DNA of 56,300 bases, filler included, from Catajapyx aquilonaris (GCA_000934665.2; 3 parts of 3 records of this genome joined end to end with filler, not necessarily neighbours in it); one strand, 5' to 3'. Positions 18,713 through 37,590 are shown, counted from the whole stretch's first letter. The notes: generated from the sequence alone by a model not told the origin. Numbers and translations: made by a program.

Positions 18713-18812
18713 NNNNNNNNNNNNNNNNNNNNNNNNNNNNNNNNNNNNNNNNNNNNTTAATTAATTAANNNNNNNNNNNNNNNNNNNNNNNNNNNNNNNN
18801 NNNNNNNNNNNN
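18713..18812. other. artificial contig spacer
   Basis: 44 N + TTAATTAATTAA (stops in all six frames) + 44 N. Confidence 0.97.
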
Positions 18813-18988
18813 GATTTTTATCTACCCAAATAAAAATTTTGAAGCCACGTGTGTTCACCAGTGCGAAGATTCGAGGGGGTCAAAATGACGTGAGTTGTGT
18901 CGGGTGAAGGTGGTCCGGCAGTGCGGCGAGAACTTGGCGGGGGCACTGCCGTGCCCCCTAAATTATGTACGTAGAGTGCTTACCGAAG

Positions 18989-20326
18989 TCAGCCGTTTCC
19001 TGTCGGTTGTGTTTCGGATCCCTTGAATTGCAACAGGACTATGAGGTACGTCGCTATTGCTCCAGTAATCTTCAATGGTAATAAAGGGTGAGAAAGTTAA
19101 TGTAATGATTGAAACGTATGTTTCGGAATTTTACCGTGGTGAGCAGGCCTCTATTGATGACAAAGAAGTTGGCTGCCGTGATTTGAACAGGAGGACCACT
19201 CATCCTACTCACTAGGGACTTCACCTGATGAGACACAGAGAATGACGACTTCAGAGGATATGTTCAGAGGTGCAATGAAAGGTACTGACCTGTCGTCGAC
19301 AGCTGGGGGTCAAGTCGGAAAGACGCAGCCGGGTCAGGTCGTCCAGCGAAGCAGTGGCCTGAAACAGTCAGTGGTCGTGATTGACTCTCCATTAACCCAA
19401 ATATCTTGCAATTTCGTACTATGTACCTTCTCCGAGAATACAGCAATCCGACATACGAAGAAGTACAGCAAGGTCATCCGTAATAATACAACGATACCTA
19501 TCATGACCATCATTTCTATGGTCAGACGGGGCATATAGCTTATGGTGGTGAAAATGGCAATGATCACTTCAAAAACGAAGGAGGTGACGCAGAGACACGA
19601 GGCCAGACCATACCCGCTGCTGACCTGTTGGCTCAGTTGGCACAGGTCAAGGTACACCCGGGCGGAGGTCACCAAGGACAGGTCAGGGTCAATCGACTGA
19701 CCGCTTCTTGGAGGCAGGAAGAGGCTGTTCATCCGACAGCAAATTTCCCCGATGGCTCGGTTGACATGGGTCATCCTCCGCTCCATTGCGGTCGACACGC
19801 ATATTATCTGACCAGGTATCAGGTCACGTATCATGGTCCTTTGCAGGATCCAGACTGCTGTATAGGCTAACAGAAGCCCAGAGTAAGTTTTGTCGGTCAG
19901 CAGATTCAATAAGCAGGTCATAGTCGCATCCAGCAGGCAAAACGCGACTATTTTGGCCTCCAGTCTGGTCAGATTGACGTGTCCCAACTTGGCCATGTCC
20001 CGGACAGATCCCATGATGCCAGAAATGGCCTTCCAGTTGTAGACGACGACCCCGAGGTTGATCCAGTTCAGAAATATTACCCCTACGTAGGACACGTAAA
20101 TTGAGTAAGCTTCTGTGTGCCCCAGCGATTGATCAGACATGACCTGGTGCTTTCCTGTTGTAAATCCGACAATCAACGTGAGAAGTAAGTAACCGAGGAT
20201 CAAAGCCACGTTTAGGACCAGTGCCCCCCATCTTGCGAGAGGTGACCTGCCATTGAGTGACCAAGGGATCAACCCAAAAGCAGCAGACACTTTCCAAACA
20301 GGACCACCTTCCATGGCTACACACAT
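18989..20326 (-). CDS. gustatory receptor Gr-1 (clade A), 379 aa; exons 20326-19427, 19358-19290, 19224-19135, 19069-18989
   Basis: Six hydrophobic helices in exon 1, three phase-0 GT-AG introns, QITAANFF.INR.LL exon and TM7 motif TYLIVLLQF. Confidence 0.93.
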
Positions 20327-20391
20327 CCAACTGTACCCTACATGGTACCTTCATAACGATATTCGATGATGTGTACACAATAGGGAGTGCT

Positions 20392-20485
20392 TTCTAAGCA
20401 TTTTTTAGGTTACGGTTGTCAGTATCGGGCGTATCCTTAAGGATACGCCCGATACTGACAACCGTAACCTAAAAAGTGCTTAGAA
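20392..20485. repeat. 94-bp zero-spacer palindrome in the Gr-1/Gr-2 divergent intergenic region
   Basis: 47-bp arms centred on CCTT|AAGG (20438/20439) with a single mismatch (20401/20476). Confidence 0.95.
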
Positions 20486-20815
20486 TTTTATATCTGACAC
20501 ATGATACACATTGTACTTTCCTCAATAGAATATATTAAGCCTGATGTTTTATTGAGGTGCAGTTAATGTCATTGAAGGTTTATATGACCAGGAATTTCCA
20601 TCGACACTATCATTTACGATCAGTGTGTGTTAATTCGATGTAACAATTGACAAGACATGTCATACTGCAATGATATAACAGTACGAGCCACGCACATATG
20701 AAATATTAATAATTGCACATTGCGGCGTTAAGCATGACCACAAGTAGGCGACGATTGATTTTGCCGCAGCGTTTGGATGTTACGTACTGTACCTTCAGTC
20801 TGCTTCTGACCAAAA

Positions 20816-22255
20816 ATGAAGAGCGAAGTGGGACCGACACCCTCGGGTACGGCCTGGGTGGCGAAGAGGCCCCTTCCTGGCAGTGTGTTCTGGAGATCAT
20901 TTGGTCCTGTGGGCACCCTGAGCTCCATCGGAGGATACCTGCCCCACCCTTGCCCTACCAGCCCAGAGGGACTCGAGGCTCGTCGGGTCAAAGGACGATG
21001 GCCAGTCCTCATCCACGGCATGGCCCTGGTCATCTACGTGGTCACCTTCATCTGCCAGGTCCCCTCGCCTCTGGAGGACCTGGCCCAGGTCGGATCCACA
21101 GAGAGGACCACCTACATCACCTGGCTGGTCGCCAGTCTCCTGTCGCCCTGGATCACACTGGCCATCATGCAGACCAGGGTCAGCCAGGTCTGGGAGACCA
21201 TGCACGAGTTGGCCAGCATCCCAATCCAGCTGGACCAATCCAAACTGAGGAGAGGCTCGCGGTGGATAGTTCTCTCCTGTCTGGTCACCACTCTGGCCAA
21301 CGTTGGTATGGCCGTGACCGGTGTGGTGGACAGCCGGTGCTCACTGGACTTTCCAGTTGTCATCTACGTGCTGGTGACCTCCCACAGCTCGCTGATCTTG
21401 TACATTCTGCCAGCCCAGATCGCATTCTTATCACTGGTGGCGGGGCAAGTGCTGCACGAGATCAACTCGGACATGAGCGAAGCATGTGGGTCACTCCGTG
21501 CATCAGGCGGAGGAACCAGAAGAGATGCCAAGGCCAGCCTCCAGCAGCTGTCAATCCATCTGGACCGCACCCTCAGAGTGGTGGACAGGATGAACTGGAC
21601 GTACGGGGTGCCCATCCTTCTCTTCTACTTCACCTTCCTGGTCACCATCACCTGTCTGCTATTCTACACCATTCTGAGTGGATTCGGACAGGACGTGCGG
21701 GTGTCCACCTCCATCTGTGTTCTCGTAGGGTTCTGCAACACACTCTACATCTCGGGGTTCACCATTATCCTCAGCTCAGTCACAGACAAGGTAATTGCAA
21801 TTGTTGATATCAAGTGCTCTGTTGAATTTATTCTCAACTGATGTGCATTGTGTGTTCTATAGGCTTCGACGTCGTTGCAGGACCTCATCATGGTGCAGAC
21901 TTTGGAAAAGTGGTCCGATTGCAAGCCGCAGGTTAATATCACAGGTTTGATAACAATGCACAGCATTATTAACCCGATTTGTTTAGATTTCAGGACTGAT
22001 CAAGAAGATGAGCTGTAACCGAGTTGAAATAACTGCGGCCAACTTCTTTGCCATCAACCGCGGCCTGCTTACCACTGTAAAATATTTATCAGCTGTCAAT
22101 GTTCTGTACTGTAATGGCATGTAATTGGTCAATTTCGTCAGATTGCAGGGGCGGTGACCACGTACTTGATTGTTCTGGCTCAGTTCAAGGGTGCAGAGAA
22201 GGACAACAATGTTTCCACAAGCACAGTAGTGACCACCGTCATACCCGCCCAGTAA
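20816..22255 (+). CDS. gustatory receptor Gr-2 (clade B), 415 aa; exons 20816-21790, 21863-21931, 21987-22076, 22142-22255
   Basis: Multi-TM exon 1 with YGVP, three phase-0 introns, TYLIVLAQF. Confidence 0.93.
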
Positions 22256-22529
22256 TACACTTTGTACTTCATTGATTAGCAGGGCGTTGCATATGTAAGG
22301 AGCCAACTGTATATTCCCAAGATGACCATATACCACGAAGGATGGCCTATAATTCATGTAATCCATCAACTTAATGGGGGCTACGGAGTCAATATAGGCC
22401 AGTCGGGATGATGACCAGCTACAAGCTATACAACACGTGATCTGATTGAGGCCCGTGATCAGCAACGTACTATTTATTCACCATGCACTGTAAGCATAGA
22501 GTTAACATATTTTCATATATTCCTCACAG

Positions 22530-22700
22530 ATACATGCTTTGATCCAGCAGATGACCAGCTCTTCTCCTGTGGAGGTCACTGCGGAAAACTTCTTTTTCTA
22601 TTAACTGCGGTAAGAAGACTATATTGACAAAATACCATTTTTGCAATAATGAAGCATTGTCTTGGTGAATATTGCAGGTGCTGTGACTATACTATCCTAG
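22530..22700 (+). pseudogene. orphan Gr exon-3/exon-4 relic
   Basis: CAG|IHALIQQMTSSSPVEVTAENFF-frameshift-LLTA|GTAAG, then ATTGCAGGTGCTGTGACT (IAGAVT) lacking its acceptor and the rest of TM7. Confidence 0.8.
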
Positions 22701-22755
22701 AATATTAACATGGATTAAAATTTTAAAAGCGGAAGTGTCTATGCTGGCATTTATA

Positions 22756-24103
22756 CTATGGGGTTGTAGCATTGAAGCTGTGTGTTTCTGATCCTTTGAA
22801 TTGCACCAGGACTATGAGGTACGTCGTAATTGCTCCAGCAATCTTTAATGGAAAAATATTTGTGGGATAATAATTGAAATATAATATTTTTGAAACATAT
22901 CTCGAGTACTTTACCGTAGTTAGCAGGCCTCGATTGATGACAAAGAAGCTAGCAGCTGTGATTTGAACTGGAGGACCACTCATCCTAATCACTAGTGACT
23001 TCACCTGATGGGACACAGAGAATGACGACTTCAGAGGATATGTTCAGAGGTGTAATGCAAGGTACTGACCTGTTGTTGAGAGGTTGGGGTCAAGTCTGAG
23101 AGAGGCAGCTGGGTCAGATCGTCCAGAGAAGCAGTGGCCTGAAACAAACAGTGGTCGTGATTTAATCTCTTTTGTGCATATGACCTACAATCGCTGACTG
23201 TACCTTCTCAGAGAATGCAGCAATCCGACACACAGAGAAGTACAGCATGGTCACCCGACATAATACATAGATTCCGGTCATGACCTTCATTTCTATGGTC
23301 AGCTGGGTCCCAAAGTCAATGGCGGTGAAAATGGCAATGATCACTTCAAAAACGAAGGAGGTGACGGAGAGACACGCTGCCATACCGTACCCGCTGTTGA
23401 CCTGTTGGCTCAGCTGGCATAGGTCAAAGTACATCCGGTTGGACGTCACCAAGTGCAGGTCAGGATCAATCGACTGACCACTTCTTGGAGGAATGAAGAT
23501 GCTGTTATTCATCCGACAGCAAATTGCCCCGATGGCTCGGTTGACCTGGGTCATCCTGCGCTCCATTGCGGTCGACACGCATATGATCTGACCTGGTATC
23601 AGGTCACGTATCATTGTCGTTTGTATGGCCATGATTACTGTGTAGGCAAAGATAGGCCCATCATACATTAATGCGTTGTAATATTCGATAAGACATGTCA
23701 TTCCGGCGTCTAGGACACAAAACGTGACTATTTTGGCCTCCAATCGGGTCAGATTGACGTGTCCCAACTTGGCCATGTCCCGGACAGATCCCAATATGCC
23801 AGAAATGGTCTTCCAGTTGTAGACGACGACCCCGAGGTTAATCCAGGTCAGAAATGAGACCGATGCGTAGTACGAGTAAACGGAGTACATCTCGGTACTC
23901 GACAATGATTGTATCAACTCTTGGTGATTTCTTGTTGTAAATCCGACAATCAACAGGAGAGCCAAGTAACCTAGGATCAAAGCCACGTTTATGACCAGTG
24001 CCCCCCACCTGGCGAGAGGTGACCGGCCATTGAGTGACCAAGGGATCAACCCAAAAGCTGCAGACACTTTCCAAACAGGACCGCCTTCCATCGCTACACA
24101 CAT
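22756..24103 (-). CDS. gustatory receptor Gr-3 (clade A, close paralog of Gr-1), 381 aa; exons 24103-23204, 23138-23070, 23004-22915, 22842-22756
   Basis: Same exon structure as Gr-1; TYLIVLVQF. Confidence 0.93.
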
Positions 24104-24407
24104 CCAACTGTACCCTACATGGTACCTTCATAACGATATTCGATGATGACAATATAGGGAGTGCTTTCTACAGACCGTACAGGTCGCGTTTGTCATTAAG
24201 GGGCGTTGTCTCACAATGAATTTTAGATAATTATTATGTGGCTTTTGTTCAATAGCTTCAATTTCAATGTCCACCCAGCAATATTTGACATATAAATGAT
24301 ATATAGTCCCCGACACTTTCCTATAGAATTGATTCTATTGTCCACCTACATGTCCACTACACTAATAATGCACATGTATCGACACTGCTTGACCAGTTCT
24401 TCTCGAT

Positions 24408-27053
24408 ATGTTCAGTACAGCCATGTTTCGACGGAGGAACAAGCCTATCCAGATCCAGCAGGACAAGTTTTGGGACACGTACCGACCTTTCGTGGTCCTA
24501 AGCATTGTTGCAGGATTCACATCATGTCCGATTCCACCTACCAAGTGGTACAGACGCTGGCCGAGCATCCTGCACGTCCTGTTCATACTGGGAGTGGTCA
24601 CTCTGTTCGGATGCAAACTGCCCTATCCGCTGTCCAGCATGGGCAGGTTGGGCACCACCCAGAAAGTGGCAGGGGTCACGGATCTAGTCATGAACATCGG
24701 CTGCTCTTGGGCCATGTTCCTTCTGATGCAGACCAAGCTGAAGGCAGTGTGGTCAGTCATGAAGGCTGTGGCTGACCTTAGGGTCACGCTGGACCGGGTC
24801 AGGTTACGGAAAATGGCTTTTGTCCTGGTTGCCCACTGCTTGTTTATGACCTTTATGAGAGCCATGCATCCGATATCTGACCTCATATTTTTTCCGGAGA
24901 AGCACGACGCAATGTCTGTCCTGTACACGGCGGTCATATGGCACTGCGCCATACCGGTGTACGCCCTGCAGACCCACGTGGCGTTTCTGGCCTTAGTTCT
25001 ACGAGAAATGTTCAGGGAGGTCAACCGGGAGGTCAATCTGGTGTGCAAGAGTGACCTGGACAAAGACGGAAAGGTCAAACTGCAGGAGCTGGCGGACAAG
25101 TTCGACTCCGGATTGGACCTGGTTCAAAGCATGTCCAGGGTGTACGGTATGCCCATGGTCTTGCTCTATCTGATAGTCATGGTGACCATCACCAACACCC
25201 TGTTCGGATTCATTCTCACCGGGTTTGACCCCAAGAATGTCATCCGGATGACCATCAGCATGGTCATCGTCACCTGCGAGATGCTCTCGATCGTCGGGTT
25301 CACCGTGGTCCTGGGTACGATACCGGAGAATGTAAGTCCTTGGAATGGCCTGCATTCATAATATGAACACCGTACAATCTTTTCCTTAAATTGATTTCCT
25401 ACAACCGGCCCTTTATTACTAATTAATTACAATAAAGTTATCTTAAATCATTATTGTCACTTGCTTAGGGAACAAATCCAACTACTGGCTACCACTATTT
25501 TCCACTCATTATCTGGATTTCCAATAGAAATGTAACTCTAACCGTTAATGTAGCAGCTAATGTAACAGTCAGTTTAACTAATAGTGTAACAGTCAGTTTA
25601 ACTAATAATGTAACTGTTAATGTAACAGACTTTATTATTAATTACAATTGATGTAACAGTCAGTTTAACTATTAGTGTAACTGTTAATGTGACAGTTATT
25701 ATTAATTACAATTAATGTATCTGTTAGTGTAACAATGTAAGTACCATGTTTAATGGTACATGGTTACACTAACAGATACATTAATGGTTATATTAACGGT
25801 TACACTAATAGCGATAGTTAAACTGACTGTTACATTAACAGTTACACTATTAGTTACAATAACAGTTACACTATTAGTTATATTAACAGTTACACTATTA
25901 GTTACATTAGTAGCTACATTAACAGTTACACTATTAGTTACATTAGTAGCTACATTAACAGTTACACTATTAGTTACACTATTAGTTACATTAACAGTTA
26001 CACTATTAGTTACATTAACAGTGACACTATTAGTTACAATAACAGTTACACTATTAGTTACATTAGTAGCTACATTAACAGTTATCATGTAGCTGTAAAT
26101 GCAGCCTTTAGTTTATTAGCTTAACTTTAATATAACTGTTAATGTAACCCTTAATGTAACTGACAATTCAACCAATAGGGCTACATAAACCACTCTTCCA
26201 CTTTTCCTGGATTTCTAATAGAAATGTAACAGAATTTAATGTAACCACTAATATAACTTACTGTCAAACCAAGTGTTAATCTAACTAATGATGTAACTGT
26301 TAATCTAACTAATGATGTAACTGTTAATCTAACTAATGATGTTACAACTGTTATAATGGCCTTTCAGGCAACCGTTAATGTAAAACTGTTAACGGTAAAT
26401 GTAACTGTCACTATAAACTCTTGACGTGACCGTTACTGTTAATGTAACCGTTGATACCAAAATGGCAATTATTTTCAGGCTACCACATCGTTGAAGAATC
26501 TAATTAAAGCTCGGGCGATGGAAAAGTGTAGTCCCAGTTGCGAAGCGCAGGTAAGGAACTATTTTACAGGCCAATGTATCGCCTCTATTAGTGGGAGCGG
26601 TACAAGTAAAATGACAGAAAAAAACAGCATTTGATGATAGAAGCAAGCCACTTCGCACACTTGTTCCTAACACCATAAGGTTCAATTTGACCCGCAGTAC
26701 CCTCAAAATTTTGCTAGGGGAGTGTGCGTGCGTCTCATAAAGTCATACCCTAGCAAGTTTGCTAGAGGCTATCGCTATATATCCAATACAGTAAGGTATT
26801 TTGCAGGTGAGCGGTCTGATCCAGCAGATGAGCGGTCCTCCGGTGCAAATCACAGCTGCAAACTTCTTCACCATCAATCGTAGCCTGTTAACTGCTGTAA
26901 GTAGCAATACATACTGTACACCATACATACATACATGTAATGCGCAGTGTATTGTGTAATAATTGTGAACTTCAGATTTCAGGTGCTGTAACCACGTACC
27001 TCATTGTCTTGGCCCAGTTTGAAGGGGCTGAAGACCACGGACGCAATCGTTAG
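24408..27053 (+). CDS. gustatory receptor Gr-4 (clade B), 387 aa; exons 24408-25331, 26479-26550, 26807-26896, 26976-27053
   Basis: Multi-TM exon 1, phase-0 GT-AG introns, TYLIVLAQF. Intron 1 is expanded by a minisatellite. Confidence 0.92.
25531..26455. repeat. 12-bp-period minisatellite with an internally inverted block, in Gr-4 intron 1
   Basis: TGTAACTGTTAA-type units at 25531-25740 and ~26090-26455. Opposite-orientation GTTACATTAACA / GTTACACTATTA units at 25760-26087. Confidence 0.9.
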
Positions 27054-27243
27054 ATTGTTAAGTGTTGTAACGTGTCCATATAATGTACCAAGGGTTACAC
27101 AATTCTCCGTATAAATTATTACCCGTTCCTTTCCCGGTATACCGCCTTGTTCGTCAACAACATATATCGACACCTCATCAATCAGTGTTGATGGACAGGC
27201 AGCCTTAATTCCACACCTGGTCTTGTTCAGTCGTACGCGAGCC

Positions 27244-28561
27244 ATGTTCGGAAAGGCTACAACTGTCCAGCCGGTCCTCCAGTTCCAGAAGTTCGTTGTC
27301 CGGAAGCGGTACTTCTGGAGGGTGTTTCGTCCTGTAGCCGCCTTCAGTGTGGTCGGTGGATTCCTGCAGTGTCCTGTACCGGCGAATCCGGCTGATCTGA
27401 GGTTGATTCGGAGATGGCCGGCTGTGTGTCACGTACTGTTTCTATCTGCGATTGTAACGGTGTTTGTTGCGTATCGGTTGCCACCGAAGCTGACGGGTGT
27501 GTCCGAGCTGGGGTCGACCCAGAAGACCTCGCTGGCCACTGACCTGGCTATGAACATGGGGTCGTCCTGGGTCGTGTTCGCAATCATGCAATCGAGGCAT
27601 CGCGCTGTCTGGCGCATCGTGTTCGGTCTGGCCAGTGTGGACGTGCAGCTCAGGAGGACCAGGCTGCGTCGGTGGTCCGTCGGTATGGTTCTAGTTGGAT
27701 CTACCATGATCCTGATGAGGGCGATGCATCCTGTTTCGGACGCCATAGCCGACCCAACCGGACGCGACCTGGTGTCCGTCTTGTACATATTCGTCATCGG
27801 ACACTGCGCCATGCCTGTGTATGTCCTGCTCACCCAAGTCGCCTTCCTGGCCGTGGTTCTTTGTCAGGTATACTTGTACTACTGTAGGACTACTGTTCAG
27901 TAAGTTACTGCTACTACTGATGCTGCTACAGGTGCTGAAGGAGATCAACCGAGACATAAGCATGTTGTGCGACTACCTGTGCGCAGGACAAGACTTCGAT
28001 GCGAAGGTGAGGCTGCAGGAGTTGTCCACAAAGCTATGGCAGAGCTACGATCTGGTGGAGGACATTTCGAAGGTGTACGGAGTGCCCATGCTCATATCGT
28101 ATCTGATCGTCATCATAACCTTGACCAACACTGTCTTCGGACTGATTATGACCGGATTCGAGGGCCAGGCGGAGATACCCAACGCCTTCGCTGTAGTTAT
28201 CGTCACGTGCGAGGTATCTGCCATCGCAGGGTTCACCATTGTCCTGGCCACCGTACCTGAAAACGTGAGTACGAATCATATCTTTGCGATACTTCCGACT
28301 CACGTGCATGTCACTATATTTCAGGCACACACGTCTTTGAAAGACCTCATTAAGGTGCGAGCTCTAGAACGATGTCACACTTGCGAAGCACAGGTTTGCA
28401 ACTAATAAGTGTTAGCTATAATGGTTGAACAATTATTGAATTTGAATAATTCGATTGTTCGAATAGGTTACAGGATTAATCCAAAAAATGAATGGAGCTC
28501 CCGTGCAAATATCTGCTGCAAATTTCTTTTCAATCAACCGCAGTCTGCTTACAGCTGTAAG

Positions 28562-28625
<64 letters not shown>

Positions 28626-28698
28626 ACTGCTACTGCTACTTCTACTTCTGCTACTACTTCTACTACTGCTACTACTACTTCTACTTCTACTACTACTT

Positions 28699-28729
<31 letters not shown>

Positions 28730-28734
28730 ATCTT

Positions 28735-28797
<63 letters not shown>

Positions 28798-28914
28798 GAT
28801 CGATTGTTTTTTGCGCAGATTTCTGGGGCTGTCACCACTTACATCATCGTTTTGGCGCAGTTTAAAGTAGCAGAAGATGGCAAGACAGCGATTGCGAATC
28901 ACGAGCATACTTAA
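27244..28914 (+). CDS. gustatory receptor Gr-5 (clade B), 403 aa; exons 27244-27867, 27932-28264, 28325-28393, 28467-28556, 28819-28914
   Basis: Paralog of Gr-4. Removing an extra 64-bp phase-0 GT-AG intron restores the frame. TYIIVLAQF. Confidence 0.9.
28562..28796. repeat. (CTA/CTG/CTT)n trinucleotide microsatellite filling the last intron of Gr-5
   Basis: Direct reading; begins immediately after the GTAAGT donor. Confidence 0.97.
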
Positions 28915-29558
28915 GCTGCATTACGTGTGTGCATTACGTTCATGCCAATGCAGCACATTGTACTAGTACTGTACATACATTAGAAAGTCAAATAGTGGAA
29001 CATTTTCAAGCGATTTTGTATTTCCCGGAATGTACTACGATCGTTCTGCATTTCAACAGTAGTTGCACGAAAATTGATTTGCGAATGCTTGATTAGCCAG
29101 AGTGTTTAATAATACACGACAATCCACATCGCACTTGAGGCTACGTACCTGTCACTCTACGACGATCACGCAAAGCCTACTAAATGATTCCATAAAATAT
29201 TAAAAGACAAACACAAACACTGACCAAAAATCGTCTTTTTTCAAGCGGAATTGTTGAGAAGAAATTGTTCCATGTCACACTTATTGCGGGACAAAATCTT
29301 GTGTGATAGGTTGAAATATTAATGATGTTTCCATTACATGTCACTCTTGAGCAATACGTCGCGTAGAAGGGCAAAGAGATACTAGTCGAAGGTGTAATCA
29401 GTCATTAAAACAGCACCTCACGCAACACCTTTCATGATCAATCATCGACCGAAAAGAAGCCTCAATTAATAATATTGGAGGTATGTCCAATACATGTCGC
29501 AATGCTTCCTGGAGTAGTCGGCATCGTCTGTACAGGTGAACCGGGAATATCTGTCACC

Positions 29559-31268
29559 ATGTCAACTGTTTCTCCAGACAAAATATTCAGAAAGAAAGAC
29601 AACTACAAGGAATTTTGGAGCCTGGTACGACCAATAGAAGTGTTAGGTGTGATTGGCGGTACAGTGCATTACAAATGTATTGGAAGCACGTGCCAACCTG
29701 GTAACCACAGGCTGCTGTTACATTGGCCATCTTTCGTCAACATCATCCTGCTTGTGACATACATTGTGAGCTTTGCCAGTTTGGTGACACCTTCGTTCTT
29801 GGGTATGGACCAGGCTGGATCGACCGAGAGAACCACGTACATGCTGTACCTGACCGTGACCAAGTGGGTACCGTGGATCATTTTTGGTCTGATGCAGACC
29901 AGGTTGGACCGAGTGTGTCGTATCGTCCATTCAATGTCCGAACTGACTGTGGACACTTGTATGTCCAAGATGAGGAGGACACGATCAGTGCTTGTGGCCA
30001 TCTGTTTGCTCGCTTCGTCCATCGAGCTTGTTTGGTTCTTCATCTCCGAGGTCACCACGACGGGGTTAGATTCAATGTCCGTACTGAGCCTGGTCATCAT
30101 AGGCCACAGCGCCTTCTTGTTCCTCATAGTTACGACCCAGATCACTCTCTGGGGGATGCTGCTCCGACTAGTGTTGGAGGACATCAATCGAGACATATCC
30201 AAGACATGCAACGCTATCAGAGACAACAAAAGGGACAAAAGACAAGTGCTTCAACTGCAGCGTCTCGCCGACAAGTTGAGACGTACCTTTGGAGTGGTGG
30301 ATGACATTTCTGAAGTGTACGGACTACCTTTGGTGGTCATCTACTTTGTGTGTCTGGTGGCCATTACCACTCAGGTGTTTTACATCATTCTGACTGGGTC
30401 CCATGGAGACACGGCGTTGACTGTGTCAATGACTGCAGTGGTCGTGCTGTGCTATATCGTGCTGACTGTCCTGTTTACGGTCGTATTGGGCGCCATACCG
30501 GTCGAGGTGAGTTGACAGCCGTACCGATCAACAAAAAAACTATAATCATATTATTTGACAGGCCACTCGTTCCCTGAACGACCTCATTATGGTGAAACCA
30601 CTAGATATGAATCCAGATTGTCAGAAGCAGGTGAGGGTCAGCACAATGCATCGTATAGGTCACACTATATAGAAACAATGTGTTTTGCAGGTGGATGCTC
30701 TGATATTGAAAATGACAAGCTGCTCTCCTGTGCAGATCACGGCTGCCAACTTCTTTTCAATTAATCTTGGATTATTGGTGACCTCTGTAAGTATATGACT
30801 GGGTCAGGTCAGGGAGCATAATTATACTACATAAGAGGCGCAAACATTCGATTTCCGCGTCTCTCTGTTTGGGGCGTTGCCAAGGCAGGCGGCCATTTTG
30901 AAGTGCGAGGAACGCCAACGAGGTATAAATAGAGTACAGGCAAAAATATGGCCCGCCATCTTTGATGGTTTTGGCGGCCATAGCAACTACATGACAAGAA
31001 CACGCGCGAATCAAAGATGGAGGACCCTATTTTTGCCTGCACCCTATTTATACCTCGTTGGCGTTCCCCACACTTCAAAATGGCGGCCAGCCTTGGCAAC
31101 GCCCCCAAACAGAGATACACGGAAATCGAATGTTTGCGCCTCTTATGTAGTAAATGCTCCCTGATTCTGAGTTCAATTTATTGTCATGCCTTTCATATTG
31201 GTGGTCAGATTGCAGGTTCGGTCACCACTTATCTTATCGTGCTGGGGCAATTCAAGGGAGCGGAGTAG
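29559..31268 (+). CDS. gustatory receptor Gr-6 (clade B), ~390 aa; exons 29559-30506, 30562-30630, 30691-30786, 31209-31268
   Basis: Multi-TM exon 1, phase-0 introns, TYLIVLGQF. Start codon is uncertain because an in-frame ATG lies further upstream. Confidence 0.9.
30827..31150. mobile_element. palindromic MITE in Gr-6 intron 3
   Basis: TA|CTACATAAGAGGCGCAAAC...GTTTGCGCCTCTTATGTAG|TA, ~140-bp arms. Absent from the Gr-7 intron. Confidence 0.85.
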
Positions 31269-31567
31269 GACAAAAGGAGCCACCAACATCAGACAATGAA
31301 ATTCTGCAGTACTTTCGGCACAAAATATTACGCCATATATTTTCTACCAACTGTTTGGCAACTGACTGAAAAATGCATTATTGTAACACATAAGTCTTGC
31401 AAATAACTGTGCATGTACCGCATCGCGTGCGTTGATGACTGATACAAACGGACTTCAGCAGCACTTAATAAATCCTGCATGAATGAGTTATGTCCACTCT
31501 GCATGTGCATGTCGACAGTTTGCAGGCACACCTCTTTCCGTCTGCATCGTCTCATATGAGGACCAGG

Positions 31568-32936
31568 ATGAATAGATCCGTGTGTCCAGTGAAAACATCT
31601 AGAAAAGACGAAAAGGACGACTTTTGGACACTGGTCAGACCGATTGCATTGTTGGGCGCGATTGGCGGTACAGTACGGTACAAGTGTGTCCGCAAGTGCG
31701 AACCTGGTAACCACAGGTTGCTGTTACGTTGGCCATCTTTGGTCAACGTCATCCTGCTTGTGACATACATTGTGAGCTTTGTCAATTTGGTGACACCTTC
31801 GTTCTTTGGTCTGGACAAGGCTGGAAAGACTGAGAGACAGTCGTACATGCTGTACCTGACCGTGACCAAATGTGGACCGTGGGTCATTTTTGTGCTTATG
31901 CAGACCAGGATGGACCGGGTGTGTCAGATCGTCCATTCGATGTCCGAACTGACTGTGGACACTTGTACGTCCAGCATGAGGAGGACACGATCAGTGCTTG
32001 TGGCCACCTGCTTGCTCGCTTCGTCCGTCGAAATCGCTTCGTTTTTCATCTTTTCATTCTACTATACGGGGCTGGATTCGTTGTCCGTACTGTTCATGGT
32101 CATCACAGGCCACAGCGCCTTCTTGTTCCTCGTTGTTCCGATCCAGATCATACTCTGGGGGATCATGCTTCGACGAGTGTTGGAGGACATCAATAGAGAC
32201 ATATCCAATGCATGCGACACTATTCGACACAACTTAAGAGACAAGAGACGATGGTCCGAACTGCAGCGTCTCTCCGACAAGTTGAGGCATACTTTTGAGG
32301 TGGTGCATGATATTTCTGAGGTCTACGGAATGCCCATGGTTGTCATCTACTTTGTGTGTCTGGTCTCCATCACCTGCCAGATGTTTTACATCATTCTGAC
32401 TGGTTTCCATGGGGACATGGCGCTCAATACGTATATGACTGCGGTTGTCGTACTGTGCTACGTCGTATTGACCGTCTTGTTTACCATCATCTTGGGAGCT
32501 ATACCGGCCGAGGTGAGTTGAAGTATTCAGAGGGACTAAGCATGCAATGTGTCTCTTATTTGTCATTATGACGTTACAGGCGACTCGCTCATTAGATGAT
32601 CTCATCACGGTGAAGTCTCTCGACATGAATCCATATTGTGAGAAACAGGTGAGAGTCCGTAAAATACATGGTAGTTCACGCTAACAATGTGTTTTCCAGG
32701 TGGATACCCTGATCTGGAGGATGACAAGTTCTGCTCCTGTGCAGATCACGGCTGCCAACTACTTTCCAGTCAGTCTCGGACTGGTGACCTCTGTACGTAT
32801 ATGACTGGGTCAAGTGCAACAATCATCATGATGCCTTTGACATTCTCAGGTTGCAGGTTCGGTCACTACTTACCTGATCGTGCTGGCGCAATTCAAGGAT
32901 GCGGAGAAGGACAATGGAGCCACGAAATCTTCTTAA
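31568..32936 (+). CDS. gustatory receptor Gr-7 (clade B, close paralog of Gr-6), ~397 aa; exons 31568-32512, 32580-32648, 32700-32792, 32850-32936
   Basis: Same structure; TYLIVLAQF. In-frame ATGs also at 31490 and 31556. Confidence 0.92.
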
Positions 32937-33179
32937 GATCGATTGGGTCAACCCATTTATACTACTGAGTTCATACAATCGACTTTTATAGCGTGGTCTT
33001 TCTCAGCTCGGTCACTTTAAAAAAAATCAATTTAGAGAAATTACAAAATTGATTTCCCTTTGGCTGCATGTCCATTACTCGCGCTTCAATCACAATGCTG
33101 CTCGCGGGAAATGTCATGTGCCCAGAAAGCAAAGGTTTGTTCACGTGTACTTTAGATTACGCAATGTCGTCTGCTGTAT

Positions 33180-33279
33180 ATAGGACATGTCATAGTGTTT
33201 ATAAAAGGTGTGTCCAGCTGTGCGACCTTGTATCTCATTCTGATGGGAATGGTCAGCCGGATCTGACCTGCTGGTCCCA
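33180..33279 (+). promoter_or_regulatory. conserved proximal upstream block of Gr-8/9/10 with a TATA-like box
   Basis: TATAAAAG at 33200 (Gr-8) and 35502 (Gr-9), TAGAAAAG at 37321 (Gr-10), each followed by a nearly identical ~65-bp segment before the ATG. Confidence 0.55.
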
Positions 33280-34677
33280 ATGGTCCCAATGGTCCCAACG
33301 AAAGGGCTTGTTTCTTTGGGTCCGATACGTGCAGTGTCTGTGTCACTCGGAATATTTCCATGGCCATTTGCATCATGCCACTGGATCCTCAAGAGGTGGA
33401 CATGCGCCTTCAACATTTGTCTGATGATTGGCTTGATCCTGGCTGCGGTTTATACTACAACTAATAACAACCAAGAACCTGAACATAAATCTGGTCAGTC
33501 TGAAACCATGACATATTCTGGCACTTTATACGGCATAGCATTAAGTATGTTGCCTTGGATCAACTTCGTGGTCGCCAATTTCAATGTGAAGAGGCGATCC
33601 ATGATTTTGGATGAATTGACCCAGGTAAACGCTGGGGATCTGACCATTCGAAAGATTGAATGGCGGATTGTACTTTTCGCATGTCTGGATGCCCTTCTTT
33701 ATGTTCTCTTAGTCGCACAGTACTCGATGGCAGTCATAATTCCCAGCATAATGATATGGCATTCCATCATGATCCGTAACATGATCCCGAGTCATTTGCT
33801 GTACGCCTCCATTTCCATCAAACGAGGATTCAAACGGGTCAACGACTCGATCACATCAAGTTGTCGCCGATTGAACACAGTGTTTGGCACACATGACACC
33901 TCTTCGTTGTCCAAGCACGACAATCCATTTGGAGCACCAGGAAAGATGTACTTCGAACTGTGCGACCTGACCGAAAGATTGTCCCAAGAGTACGGTGTTT
34001 CCATCTGCATCTCATTCGTATCATGGGTATGGGAAATCATTATTTCCGTATTCGTAATAATTGAATTGTTGACCATGAACCAATTAATGATGATGATGCT
34101 GAAGATTCTGATTCTCGTCGTTTCTAAAGTGGTGATGCTGTACTTGGGTACATCCCTGATTGGAGACATACCGGAGATGGTGAGCGACAATGTTGCAAAT
34201 TTCTAACGTTTATGGGAAACCCCAAAATGCTAAGTGAAAGCTTGAGATGTTGGACTCAAAATATAAAATGTCTAATATCCCAATTCCAGGCAACCACATC
34301 TAGGAAGGATTTGATCCGGGTTCAACTAGACAGCCTGACTCCAACATGTCGGAACCAGGTGAATTTTAATTATTGAGCTAATGTGAATTCATATCCTCCA
34401 TTCCTCTGTATTATTTCCACAGGTGAAATCTTTAATCGATCAGATGAGCGGACCTCCAGTTCAAGTCACAGCTGCAAACTATTTCGCCATCGACAGGAAA
34501 CTACTCACTTCAGTATGTTCCATCATATCCTGTTGCACCTTAAATTGAACTTCCAGTAATTAGCACCAATATTATCCTCAGATGGCAGGAGCAATCGCAA
34601 CATACATCATAGTCCTGGCCCAATTCAGACGATCAGAAGATTCCCTCACAACGGCTGGAAACTGCAATGTCACTTAA
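33280..34677 (+). CDS. gustatory receptor Gr-8 (clade A), 384 aa; exons 33280-34179, 34290-34358, 34423-34512, 34582-34677
   Basis: Multi-TM exon 1 (WIN, CLDA, MIRN motifs shared with Gr-1/3), phase-0 introns, TYIIVLAQF. The start is duplicated (ATGGTCCCA x2). Confidence 0.93.
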
Positions 34678-35584
34678 TTGAATTATGTTTTATTTCCATA
34701 CAGCCTCCTGTAGTCTACAACTGACGTTAAAAACTACCCCGTTAAAAACTACCCCTAATGATCGCCACCGTGTTGATTTGTTTCACGAACATACGTTGTG
34801 AAATATACATAAGATGAGTCTCACTTTTTTGTATAGTACTTAACTTAACAATAAAGATTGTCGACATCAGGTTATTGGATTGATTAAAACAGCCGAGTGT
34901 TATAAAGTGGTTTGGCATCGCCCACAGCACCTCAATAAAACATCAGGCATTGCTATTGAGGCACTCACAATGTGATTGATGATCAGATCTAAAATTCCCT
35001 GTAAGACAACGCCCGATATTGACTACGCAACCTGAAAGGTCTTTGGAAAGCACTCCTTCATTCGTCACCTCCTTTGTTTTAGAGTTGTTGATGGTGTCCA
35101 TTTTCTCCGCCATCAACTTACAATAAAATAATTACTATAATCAATAATTATTTTACCAATGCTTGCAAACAATTATGGGCGCCCACTTAATCTCCAAATG
35201 ATTTAGCTCGCACACAGTAAAACTTATCATTGAATGAATTCCAAGCATAACAAAGCATACTGATGGGGTAAATAAGCAATTTTTTCGGTCAATTTGTCTG
35301 TTACAGTTGGGCCACTCTTTAGAAGAATGAGCGGGGAGAAATTAATTAATCATTAATGATTTTCTTTTACATTCATGTTCATTATTCATCTCTGTGCGAA
35401 TGTCGATCGGTTGAGAAGTCTAGTGCCCATAAAACAAACACGTTTTGTGCAAATACATTAAAGACATTTATAGGACATGCCAAATCAAATGTACAGGTGT
35501 TTATAAAAGGTGGTGTCCAGATGTGCGACCTTGTATCTCATTCTGATGGGAATGGTCAGCCGGATCTGACCTGCTGGGCACAAA

Positions 35585-36913
35585 ATGGTCCCAACGAATG
35601 GGCTTGGTTCATATGGTCCGATACGTGCAGTGTCTGTGTATCTCGGAATATTTCCGTGGTCATTTGCATCATGCCACTGGATCCTCAAGAGGTGGACATG
35701 CGCCTTCAACATTTGTCTGATGATTGGCATGATCCTGGCTTATACTGCAACTAACGACCACAAACATGATCCAACTGGCATCCCGTCTGAAACCATCAAG
35801 TATGCCGCCCTATTGTACAACATAGCGTCAGTCGTGATGACTTGGATCAACTTCGTGGTCGCCAATTTCAATTCGAAGAGACGATCCATGATTCTGGATG
35901 AATTGACCCAAGTAAACGCTGGGGATCTGACCATTCGAAAGATTGAATGGCGGATTGTACTTGTCACATGTTTGGATGCCATGCTTTACGCTCTGACAGT
36001 CCCACCAACATCAGTCGTTGTCATCTTTCAATACATGATCTTTTGGCAGTCCATCATGATCCGTAACATGATCCCAAGTCAGGTGCTGTACGCCTCCATT
36101 TCCATCAAACGAGGATTCAAACGGGTCAACGACTCAATCACATCAAGTTGTCGCCGATTGAACACACACCAAACCTCTTTGTTGTCCAAGTACGACAATC
36201 CATTTGGAGCACCAGGAAAGACGTACTTCGCCCTGTGCGACCTGACAGAAAGGTTGTCCCAAGAGTACGGTGTTTCCATCTGCATCTCCTTCGTATCATG
36301 GGTCTGCGAGATCATAGTTTGCCTCTTCGTAATAATTGCATTGCTGACCTTCAGAAAAGAAATAAGGATGCTTCTGCTGAACATTTTGGTTCTGGTGGTT
36401 TCGAAAATGGTGATGCTTTACATAGGCACATGTCTTGTTGGTGACATACCGGAGATGGTGAGTGATAGTATACTGTATTAAAATGATGTTAAAAAGCATG
36501 ACGTGATTTTCCTAATTCCATCAGGCCATCTCGTCGAGAAAGGACTTGATCCGGGTCCAACTTGACAACCTGAGTCCAAACTGTCGGAACCAGGTGAGTC
36601 TTAATTAATTTCCTGTTAATTTATTGACCTCCATTGATCCGAACTGTATTCCTCAGGTGAAGTCGTTAATCGCTCAAATGAGCGGACCTCCAGTTCAAGT
36701 CACGGCTGCAAACTATTTCTCAATCGACAGGAAACTGCTTACTTCGGTATATGTTTCATCATATCCTGTTTCACATTACATGAAACGTCCAGTAATTAGC
36801 ACTAATTATATCCTCAGATCGCAGGAGCAATCGCAACATACATCATAGTCCTGGCCCAGTTCAGACGATCAGAAAAGTCCGTTACAGTAGCTGGAAACTA
36901 CACTGTCACTTAA
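35585..36913 (+). CDS. gustatory receptor Gr-9 (clade A, close paralog of Gr-8), 375 aa; exons 35585-36457, 36525-36593, 36657-36746, 36818-36913
   Basis: Same structure; TYIIVLAQF. Confidence 0.93.
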
Positions 36914-37399
36914 TTAAATTAGAATTTATTTGCATGCACCACAACCACATGTAAGTGTACCAACTGTGAATTATTATATAAATTATTCCAATACGTGACC
37001 AACACAACCATTCCTTGTACATTGGCATAGCTACATGGAAAAATGCAATCGAACAAAATAACATGACTAATTTGTACTTAGATTTTACTGGGATTGAACA
37101 AATTCAAAGGGGAGTAAAAAATTAATTCGCTGACCACTTCGGTTCACCCACTTTCTTTCAGACGATTCTGAAGAAATTACAATAATTACAATATTGATTT
37201 GTCTTTGCCTGTATGTCCAATATTCATGTCAACCTGAACGCTGCTCGCGTGACATGCCTACAAGGCACTACCTTATAAGAATACACAATGTCACCCATAC
37301 GGCATGTCATTCATAGTGTTTAGAAAAGGTGTGTCCAGCTGTGCGACCTTGTATGGCATTCTGATGGGAATGGTCAGCCGGATCTGACCTGGACACAAA

Positions 37400-37490
37400 A
37401 TGGTCCCAATGAAAGGGCTTGGTTCATTTGGTCCGATACGTGCAGTGTCTGTGTCACTCGGAATATTTCCATGGCCATTTGCATCATGCC
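37400..37490 (+). CDS. gustatory receptor Gr-10, 5' fragment cut by the assembly gap
   Basis: MVPMKGLGSFGPIRAVSVSLGIFPWPFASC, nearly identical to the Gr-8/9 N-termini, with the same upstream block. Confidence 0.85.
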
Positions 37491-37590
37491 NNNNNNNNNN
37501 NNNNNNNNNNNNNNNNNNNNNNNNNNNNNNNNNNTTAATTAATTAANNNNNNNNNNNNNNNNNNNNNNNNNNNNNNNNNNNNNNNNNNNN
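37491..37590. other. artificial contig spacer
   Basis: 44 N + TTAATTAATTAA + 44 N. Confidence 0.97.

Follow-up and report, generated by a model that had tools for sequence, protein, structure and literature searches.

Mosaic silent and intron divergence in tandem gustatory receptor genes of Catajapyx aquilonaris suggests partial homogenisation by gene conversion

The window analyzed here, a stretch of 56,300 nucleotides (filler included) from Catajapyx aquilonaris (GCA_000934665.2), is eukaryotic DNA consisting of three pieces placed end to end with two 100-base joiners between them. Its middle piece, 18813-37490, carries a cluster of nine complete gustatory receptor (Gr; 7tm_7) genes and a cut tenth, with four exons each. 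Three pairs of paralogs in this cluster, Gr1/Gr3, Gr6/Gr7, and Gr8/Gr9 (hereafter Gr1/3, Gr6/7, and Gr8/9), are probably old tandem duplicates in which interlocus (ectopic) gene conversion has erased part of the divergence. We draw this conclusion because neutral sites, whether coding or not, switch from ~10% to ~50% differences within one transcription unit and because the spacers between paralogs are diverged. In one subfamily, which comprises Gr1/3 and Gr8/9, the segments facing the ligand side, referred to below as the extracellular windows, are older than the remainder of the gene.

Silent divergence is heterogeneous along the three gene pairs

Whole-gene Nei-Gojobori estimates of synonymous and nonsynonymous divergence (dS/dN) were 0.32/0.15 for Gr1/3, 0.47/0.18 for Gr6/7, and 0.30/0.13 for Gr8/9. 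A scan statistic restricted to codons specifying the same residue in both partners detected a segment of deviating silent divergence in each pair: codons 129-154 in Gr1/3 (silent differences at 9/11 codons versus 50/267, p=0.02), codons 58-234 in Gr6/7 (13/124 versus 56/151, p=0.004), and codons 240-303 in Gr8/9 (18/41 versus 27/233, p=0.002). A two-state model was also fitted to the silent-informative codons together with the intron bases that could be aligned and, except in Gr6/7, 100 bp of 5' flank. The gains in log-likelihood (lnL) in the three pairs were 17.1, 15.9, and 20.6, for null maxima of 4.9, 4.1, and 4.6, and the gain was equalled by 0/60 shuffles in each pair. The two states corresponded to ~0.1 and 0.4-0.65 differences per site. 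Two states were also retained in Gr6/7 and Gr8/9 when the input was limited to four-fold degenerate third positions in exons (0/60 shuffles each). These results indicate that dS is non-uniform in all three pairs, as an earlier note on this DNA had proposed, and selection on amino acids alone is therefore insufficient to account for the pattern.

Low- and high-divergence tracts cross exon-intron borders

Introns were also mosaic. In Gr1/3, 47/65, 62/65, and 39/65 aligned bases were identical in introns 1 to 3, respectively; in Gr8/9, the counts were 35/60, 41/62, and 59/69. Identity differed between introns of one pair in Gr1/3 (p=1e-5), Gr8/9 (p=0.002), and Gr6/7 (p=0.01). The earlier description of introns 1-2 of Gr8/9 as diverged, of intron 3 of Gr8/9 as similar, and of intron 2 of Gr1/3 as nearly identical is borne out by these counts. 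Since the conserved intron differs from pair to pair, conservation owing to intron function is disfavoured. In Gr1/3, five low-divergence and five high-divergence tracts alternated, the latter including extracellular windows 1 and 2, the first half of intron 1, and intron 3. The main tracts of the three pairs are listed in Table 1.

Homology between partners was confined to the genes and their immediate borders. Self-BLASTN of the cluster aligned 19008-20432 with 22781-24206 for Gr1/3 (83%), 29573-30809 with 31585-32815, plus exon 4, for Gr6/7, and 33195-34702 with 35497-36938 for Gr8/9; the spacers between paralogs did not align. Pair homology stopped ~100 bp 5' of the ATG and ~25 bp 3' of the stop codon. 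In Gr1/3 and Gr8/9, upstream bases 1-100 were 84-90% identical, versus 45-60% for bases 101-300 in a forced alignment. Likewise, Gr8, Gr9, and the incomplete Gr10 were 91-94% identical over 33217-33366 and 54-73% identical in the next 150 alignment columns in the 5' direction.

A loop-less hairpin (20392-20485), with 47-nt arms that are 98% complementary, is located 66 bp 5' of the Gr1 start codon, and the end of the Gr1/Gr3 homology (20432) lies near its centre. Related pieces are present upstream of Gr3 (24158-24228) and, in inverted orientation, in the spacer between Gr8 and Gr9 (34924-35056). The hairpin could be the scar of a fold-back rearrangement or a small mobile element.

Extracellular windows appear old in two of the three pairs

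Pair alignments revealed near-identical blocks alternating with strongly diverged blocks. The AlphaFold model of Gr8 exon 1 comprises helices S0 (residues 15-23), S1 (34-63), S2 (75-116), S3 (121-145), S4 (150-203), S5 (218-265), and S6 (270-295). With the N-terminus inside, as in the matched structures described below, the model predicts that the turns at residues 64-74, 146-149, and 266-269 are extracellular. The extracellular windows were defined on this model as Gr8 residues 49-95, 134-162, and 253-282, at the outer ends of S1/S2, S3/S4, and S5/S6. The variable stretches of Gr8/9 (residues ~61-93, 142-161, and 264-275) were centred on the three predicted turns, where the earlier note had placed them. 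Codons differed at 47/110 positions within the windows of Gr1/3 and at 52/103 in Gr8/9; in exon 1 outside the windows, identity was 0.89 over 189 codons and 0.90 over 187 codons, respectively. The proposal that variability is concentrated in three windows thus holds for these two pairs but not for Gr6/7, in which 31/100 codons differed inside and 55/214 outside (p=0.34), and in which the second most variable stretch was the intracellular S4-S5 loop. An error in transferring the window limits was ruled out as the cause of the latter result, since a separate model of Gr6 placed the limits almost identically and again showed no concentration of changes in the windows. Between the pairs Gr1/3 and Gr8/9, the windows were again the least conserved segments (identity of 0.16-0.21 versus 0.3-0.4 elsewhere). 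The amino-acid mosaic thus belongs to the protein family and is, in itself, unsurprising.

Silent divergence followed the extracellular windows in the same two pairs. Window dS was 2.5-3x that of the rest of the gene in Gr1/3 and Gr8/9. In a pairwise MG94-type codon model fitted by maximum likelihood (ML; own implementation), dS in windows versus the rest was 0.58 versus 0.24 in Gr1/3 (p=0.002) and 0.53 versus 0.22 in Gr8/9 (p=0.003). Counts of silent differences at same-residue codons were 21/59 inside versus 22/158 outside for Gr1/3 (p=0.0009), 14/47 versus 17/157 for Gr8/9 (p=0.004), and 14/76 versus 36/142 for Gr6/7. The excess persisted in Gr1/3 (p=0.002) and Gr8/9 (p=0.001) when window 1, which has indels, was dropped. 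The higher extracellular dS that had been anticipated was accordingly found in two pairs, Gr1/3 and Gr8/9, and was not seen in Gr6/7. The near-zero dS anticipated for intracellular tracts was not seen, the observed value being ~0.2, and the statement that intervening blocks are almost identical even at silent sites applies to single blocks but not to the non-window codons overall, for which dS was 0.17-0.24 in Gr1/3 and Gr8/9 and ~0.4 in Gr6/7. One such block is real, 33803-33879 being identical to 36090-36166 at 76/77 bases, although the register quoted in the earlier note was one base off (20/77 as written). The TAT/TAC, CTC/CTG, and TCG/TCA differences reported between 33690-33765 and 35977-36052 were all found, in addition to ATA/ATC.

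Extracellular windows were not the only old segments. The largest old tracts of Gr8/9 and Gr6/7 (34012-34447 and 30414-30604) encode the inner half of S6 together with the S6-S7 loop on the intracellular side, barring the S5-S6 turn of Gr8/9, and they combine a protein identity of 0.7-0.8 with a silent divergence of 0.5-0.8. In these tracts, it is purifying selection rather than conversion that holds the scaffold constant. The suggestion that conversion homogenises the intracellular scaffold was thus upheld only in part.

Alternative readings: selection without conversion, and imports from distant paralogs

The main rival, which we regard as unlikely, is that selection alone acted on young duplicates with a true dS of ~0.2-0.3, relaxed or positive selection having led to fast change in the extracellular windows. 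The silent excess would then originate from multi-nucleotide mutations, alignment noise, or the local mutation rate, and introns and spacers would turn over by indels. A fixed constraint profile predicts that variability peaks in the same windows both within and between Gr1/3 and Gr8/9, as was observed, and under equal dS the windows require a dN/dS of just 1.3-1.4 (0.66-0.69 with local dS left free). The contrast at four-fold sites was weak and the run test failed in two of the three pairs, as detailed below. Tests for conversion also give false positives where constraint varies along the gene, according to the available part of a study of Drosophila chemosensory families (PMC4122928). Three observations are at odds with selection alone. 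Heterogeneity was also present at same-residue codons and in introns, beyond the reach of selection on amino acids. Protein identity is high within the largest high-dS tracts of Gr6/7 and Gr8/9. Finally, spacers ought to align by BLASTN at a dS of ~0.2-0.3, yet they do not.

Several results weigh against the reading that old duplicates were partly homogenised by conversion. For four-fold sites of exons alone, the two-state model was not significant in Gr1/3 (11/60 shuffles reached the gain) and the gain in Gr8/9 was modest (4.56 versus a null maximum of 3.88). In our own permutation version of a Sawyer-type test on silent sites, the longest run was significant in Gr6/7 only (p=0.55, 0.028, and 0.37 for Gr1/3, Gr6/7, and Gr8/9), and the sum of squared silent-free runs gave p=0.40, 0.004, and 0.18 across the three pairs. 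Extracellular dS was not in excess in Gr6/7 (0.30-0.33 versus 0.37-0.44; 0.30 versus 0.44 by ML, p=0.18), and silent elevation was absent from window 3 of Gr1/3 (2/17) and from window 1 of Gr8/9 (3/19). The limits of the windows were fixed after the alignments had been seen, though taken from helix ends in the model; with windows delimited by amino-acid identity, four-fold sites did not differ significantly (p=0.79, 0.085, and 0.08) and the ML test was weaker (p=0.075, 0.051, and 0.0014). The signature of GC-biased conversion was absent, GC content at third codon positions being 0.592 in low-divergence tracts versus 0.583 (p=0.75). Finally, comparisons were confined to paralogs of one genome and do not set the direction or the dates of events.

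Diversifying imports offer another, quite improbable, alternative, according to which the pairs are young and divergent islands were pasted into them from distant paralogs elsewhere in the genome. More copies of the subfamily do exist than the window displays, Gr10 being cut and contigs of ~2x depth covering 33763-33996. However, quartet site patterns rule out exchange across pairs within the window (276:2:3 for Gr8,9|Gr1,3 and 115:15:14 for Gr6,7|Gr2,4), and young pairs would show alignable spacers.

Adaptive diversification of the ligand pocket, which had also been suggested, was not supported by the dN/dS of the windows, which is below 1 with local dS left free. In the available text of a structural study (PMC11062906), the pocket of BmGr9 opens at the extracellular surface, spans almost half of the membrane, and contacts S2-S6. 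Gr8 resembles BmGr9 and DmGr43a (PDB 8vc1 and 8jm9) in its S0-S6 fold, with an identity of 9-12%, and S5 is the only segment that aligns with BmGr9 by sequence (E=1.7e-5). The aromatic bridge of BmGr9, Tyr332/Phe333, aligns with Gr8 F258/V259, assuming that residue numbers in the deposited chain are shifted by four, and F258 is invariant across the eight paralogs aligned. The variable residues of window 3 are located further outward than F258/V259, and the variable residues are nearer the surface than the aligned residues at the base of the pocket.

Assembly

Contigs were obtained from four short-read runs, all of them from one sample that may be the source of the assembly itself; 67-73% of the sampled words were present. 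None of the five sequencing runs returned is listed as RNA. Contigs from 4/4 runs reproduced 33984-34479, 34593-35551, 36259-36703, and 36832-37344 at single-copy depth, with no other letters in 15/16 contig pieces and one in the remaining piece (X3, 36259-36703). No joints were reported in the contigs, which had four loose-end rows only. The Gr8 and Gr9-like versions of the constant block 33763-33996 were recovered as separate read-derived contigs. The longest exact runs between partners were 56, 33, and 68 bp, and low-divergence tracts were ~90% identical, not 100%; since partners are not perfectly identical, collapse of copies is not indicated. The read-derived contigs are thus without sign of collapsed copies, the linkage not being independently proven by reads from a single sample. 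An artefact of assembly or polishing, with near-identical tracts collapsed or cross-polished and the windows chimerically linked, would fit a short piece that ends inside the block common to Gr8, Gr9, and Gr10, as is typical of a repeat-broken assembly, and read sets that may be the assembly's own source. We consider it highly improbable in view of the incomplete identity of the low-divergence tracts and of the agreement between the four runs.

Contigs differing from Gr8 by 4-6 letters (33763-33996) or from Gr9 by 4 letters (36050-36230) were detected at ~2x single-copy depth, which suggests further near-identical copies of the subfamily beyond Gr10. A dispersed repeat just 3' of the Gr8 stop codon (34650-34799) had a summed contig depth of 450-1000, versus ~25-45 for a single copy, and contig loose ends at 34729.

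Family membership and gene models

The translations of six of eight first exons matched Pfam 7tm_7 (PF08395) at 34.5-64.4 bits, above the curated cut-off of 26.6. Exon 1 of Gr8 scored 21.3 bits, under this cut-off, and exon 1 of Gr9 had no 7tm_7 match; both genes are linked to the family by their identity to Gr1/Gr3 (27-31%) and by their fold. The motif TYhhhhhQF of the last exon, which we take to be the Gr motif of the seventh transmembrane segment (TM7), was present in 9/9 complete genes and, within the window, nowhere outside 18813-37490. Gr1, Gr3, Gr6, Gr7, Gr8, and Gr9 have intact four-exon models, with GT..AG phase-0 introns and coding sequences (CDS) of 1128-1272 nt, and the best exon candidates of Gr2, Gr4, and Gr5 likewise fit three phase-0 introns. 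According to Robertson's surveys, three phase-0 introns ahead of short C-terminal exons are reportedly a trait of the Gr family.

Structure models covered exon 1 only (S0-S6), S7 being encoded by exons 3-4. The mean predicted local distance difference test (pLDDT) and predicted template modelling (pTM) scores were 85.2 and 0.82 for Gr8 and 84.9 and 0.83 for Gr6. In a Foldseek search with the Gr8 model, ranks 1-12 were all Gr or odorant receptor (Or) chains, with a probability of 1.00 and query-normalised template modelling scores (TMq) of 0.51-0.71, although the best E-value, 1.7e-3, was slightly over the 0.001 line of the tool. The closest structures were DmGr43a, BmGr9, and insect Ors (0.65-0.71). 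A word-indexed protein library queried with Gr8 exon 1 gave 940 scored candidates, none at E<=1e-5. A profile search among 1.84 billion representatives returned 22 matches at E<=0.001, one of them at E<=1e-10; 17 of the 22 were used, solely to deepen the alignments for structure prediction. By profile, motif, fold, and intron positions, the cluster genes are members of the gustatory receptor/insect chemoreceptor superfamily. Judging from sequence, they would encode ionotropic gustatory receptors, predicted to be tetrameric ligand-gated cation channels.

Alternative first exons sharing one common tail were ruled out, since nine first exons are each followed by their own three tail exons. The cluster is separated from the other two pieces by joiners, so that the window does not show which DNA flanks it in the genome. 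Intron 3 of Gr6 contains a 356-bp foldback element (30809-31164) with nested inverted arms of 99 nt (90%) and 50 nt (96%); the element, which Gr7 lacks, resembles an insertion of the miniature inverted-repeat transposable element type. Exon 1 of Gr5 is broken into two reading frames at 27867-27925 by a stretch of ~58 nt that begins with GTATAC and ends with AG, which could be a gained small intron or a disabling insertion. Long imperfect short-period repeats occupy intron 2 of Gr4 (25500-26450), and a trinucleotide run is present in intron 3 of Gr5 (28560-28800).

Table 1. Genes, divergence tracts, extracellular windows, and joiners, with positions counted from the first letter of the window.
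Feature	Position	Strand	Content or evidence
Gr1/3 low-divergence tract	19185..19383	-	3' part of intron 1, exon 2, whole intron 2, start of exon 3; two exon-intron borders crossed
Gr1/3 high-divergence tract	19079..19182	-	End of exon 3 and intron 3; 31/71 sites differ
Gr1/3 second intronic high-divergence island	19418-19384	-	15/34 sites differ
Gr8/9 low-divergence (putatively converted) tract	33196..34009	+	85 bp of 5' flank and codons 1 to ~240; 21/254 neutral-like sites differ
Gr8/9 high-divergence tract	34012..34447	+	End of exon 1, intron 1, exon 2, intron 2; 68/181 sites differ; protein identity ~0.7-0.8
Gr8/9 second low-divergence tract	34450..34672	+	Exon 3, intron 3, exon 4; 15/114 sites differ
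Gr6/7 low-divergence tract	29652..30408	+	30/180 silent-informative codons differ; one run of 26 without silent difference
Gr6/7 high-divergence tract	30414..30604	+	End of exon 1, intron 1, start of exon 2; short splice-site-adjacent interruptions at 30495-30518 and 30551-30561
Gr8 window 1 (end of S1, loop, outer S2)	33424..33564; Gr9 35720-35851	+	23/44 codons differ
Gr8 window 2 (outer S3, loop, outer S4)	33679..33765; Gr9 35966-36052	+	16/29 codons differ; silent differences at 5/12 same-residue codons
Gr8 window 3 (outer S5, loop, outer S6)	34036..34125; Gr9 36311-36403	+	13/30 codons differ; silent differences at 6/16 same-residue codons
Gr1 window 1	20057..20200; Gr3 23837-23977	-	17/47 codons differ; silent 10/29; high-divergence island of the hidden Markov model (HMM) at 20146-20071
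Gr1 window 2	19838..19939; Gr3 23618-23719	-	20/34 codons differ; silent 9/13; HMM high-divergence island at 19951-19837
Gr1 window 3	19481..19567; Gr3 23258-23344	-	10/29 codons differ; silent just 2/17; within low-divergence tract
Gr1	18989..20326 (exons 20326-19427, 19358-19290, 19224-19135, 19069-18989)	-	Pfam 7tm_7, 42.6 bits; intact 1140-nt CDS
Gr3, partner of Gr1	22756..24103 (24103-23204, 23138-23070, 23004-22915, 22842-22756)	-	Pfam 7tm_7 search, exon model, alignment to Gr1
Gr6	29502..31268 (exon 1 from 29502 or 29559 to 30506; 30562-30630; 30691-30786; 31209-31268)	+	Pfam 7tm_7 search, exon model
Gr7, partner of Gr6	31490..32936 (exon 1 from 31490 or 31568 to 32512; 32580-32648; 32700-32792; 32850-32936)	+	Pfam 7tm_7 search, exon model
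Gr8	33280..34677 (33280-34179, 34290-34358, 34423-34512, 34582-34677)	+	Exon model; AlphaFold model of exon 1
Gr9, partner of Gr8	35585..36913 (35585-36457, 36525-36593, 36657-36746, 36818-36913)	+	Exon model
Gr10, start of tenth copy	37400..37490	+	Cut by the piece end inside the block common to Gr8 and Gr9
Joiners, 44 N + TTAATTAATTAA + 44 N	18713-18812 and 37491-37590	.	Identical pair bounding the 18,678-base middle piece

Discussion

If the three pairs are old duplicates partly homogenised by conversion, as we propose, conversion rather than partial re-duplication would be the maker of the young tracts. Conversion tracts would be ~70-800 bp long, would cross exon-intron borders, and would end ~100 bp 5' of the ATG and near the stop codon. 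Young tracts, with ~0.1 differences per neutral site, would thereby come to alternate with old tracts, with ~0.4-0.65. A constraint profile common to the family would be overlaid on this patchwork, the extracellular turns and adjoining helix ends tolerating or favouring change and the intracellular and pore parts not. In Gr1/3 and Gr8/9, most extracellular windows would be old islands spared by conversion. They may have escaped because converted alleles lose a distinct ligand-side surface and are removed, or because dense mismatches halt heteroduplex extension.

In the variable exons of clustered protocadherins, Noonan et al. are said to have found in 2004 that some domains are homogenised by conversion and that recognition domains diversify. 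The constant/variable logic would be the same, but protocadherins serve in adhesion and are not ion channels. Of the systems described so far, the L/M opsin pair of primates comes closest; for this pair, the available text reports interlocus conversion with selection against the homogenisation of tuning exons (PMC3213168). As far as that text goes, both systems consist of tandem sensory-receptor duplicates undergoing conversion that includes introns, with specificity segments that stay divergent and a divergence that varies by segment class. The opsins differ in that a few known tuning sites are protected, by selection that is evident from population data, whereas the Gr pairs have three windows of 30-45 codons in one genome and one Gr pair of the three departs from the pattern.

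Theory, in the accessible portion of the review by Fawcett and Innan (PMC3924837), indicates that conversion can hold the divergence of duplicates low for a long time and interacts with selection; this is a general framework, not a case of a 7tm_7 channel. Within the chemoreceptor superfamily, GENECONV signals were reported in 8/14 ortholog groups examined among Drosophila Gr, Or, Ir, and Obp genes, one Gr group being among the unclear cases (PMC4122928), and conversion was not detected after correction in the 9-exon Or arrays of Polistes (PMC8383895). Both screens address the same question in the same superfamily, but in the sections available conversion is a nuisance for birth-death estimates or is not found, and tracts are not mapped against receptor topology. 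Our search of the literature on gene conversion in gustatory receptors and chemoreceptors found no report relating tracts to Gr topology. The Gr cluster is a further, ordinary example of the known phenomenon of concerted evolution with protected segments, which is well documented in opsins and other tandem receptors.

A stronger form of the proposal, which we hold to be doubtful, is that conversion and ligand-side divergence are mechanically coupled, mismatch-dense windows acting as barriers to heteroduplex and thereby becoming independently evolving cassettes. If this were true, the scaffold (the promoter-proximal 100 bp, S1, S2-S3, and S4-S5) would evolve in concert across at least three copies (Gr8, Gr9, and Gr10), and ionotropic chemoreceptors would have a self-maintaining constant/variable architecture, so far undescribed for the 7tm_7 family in the literature searched.

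Since young tracts (dS of ~0.1-0.2) and old tracts (0.5 or more) conflict, trees and duplication dates derived from the whole length of these genes will be incorrect. The partners in Gr1/3 and in Gr8/9 amount to natural chimeras, with a common scaffold and differences located mainly in three short outward-facing windows, and they are therefore well suited to finding out which segments determine ligand tuning.

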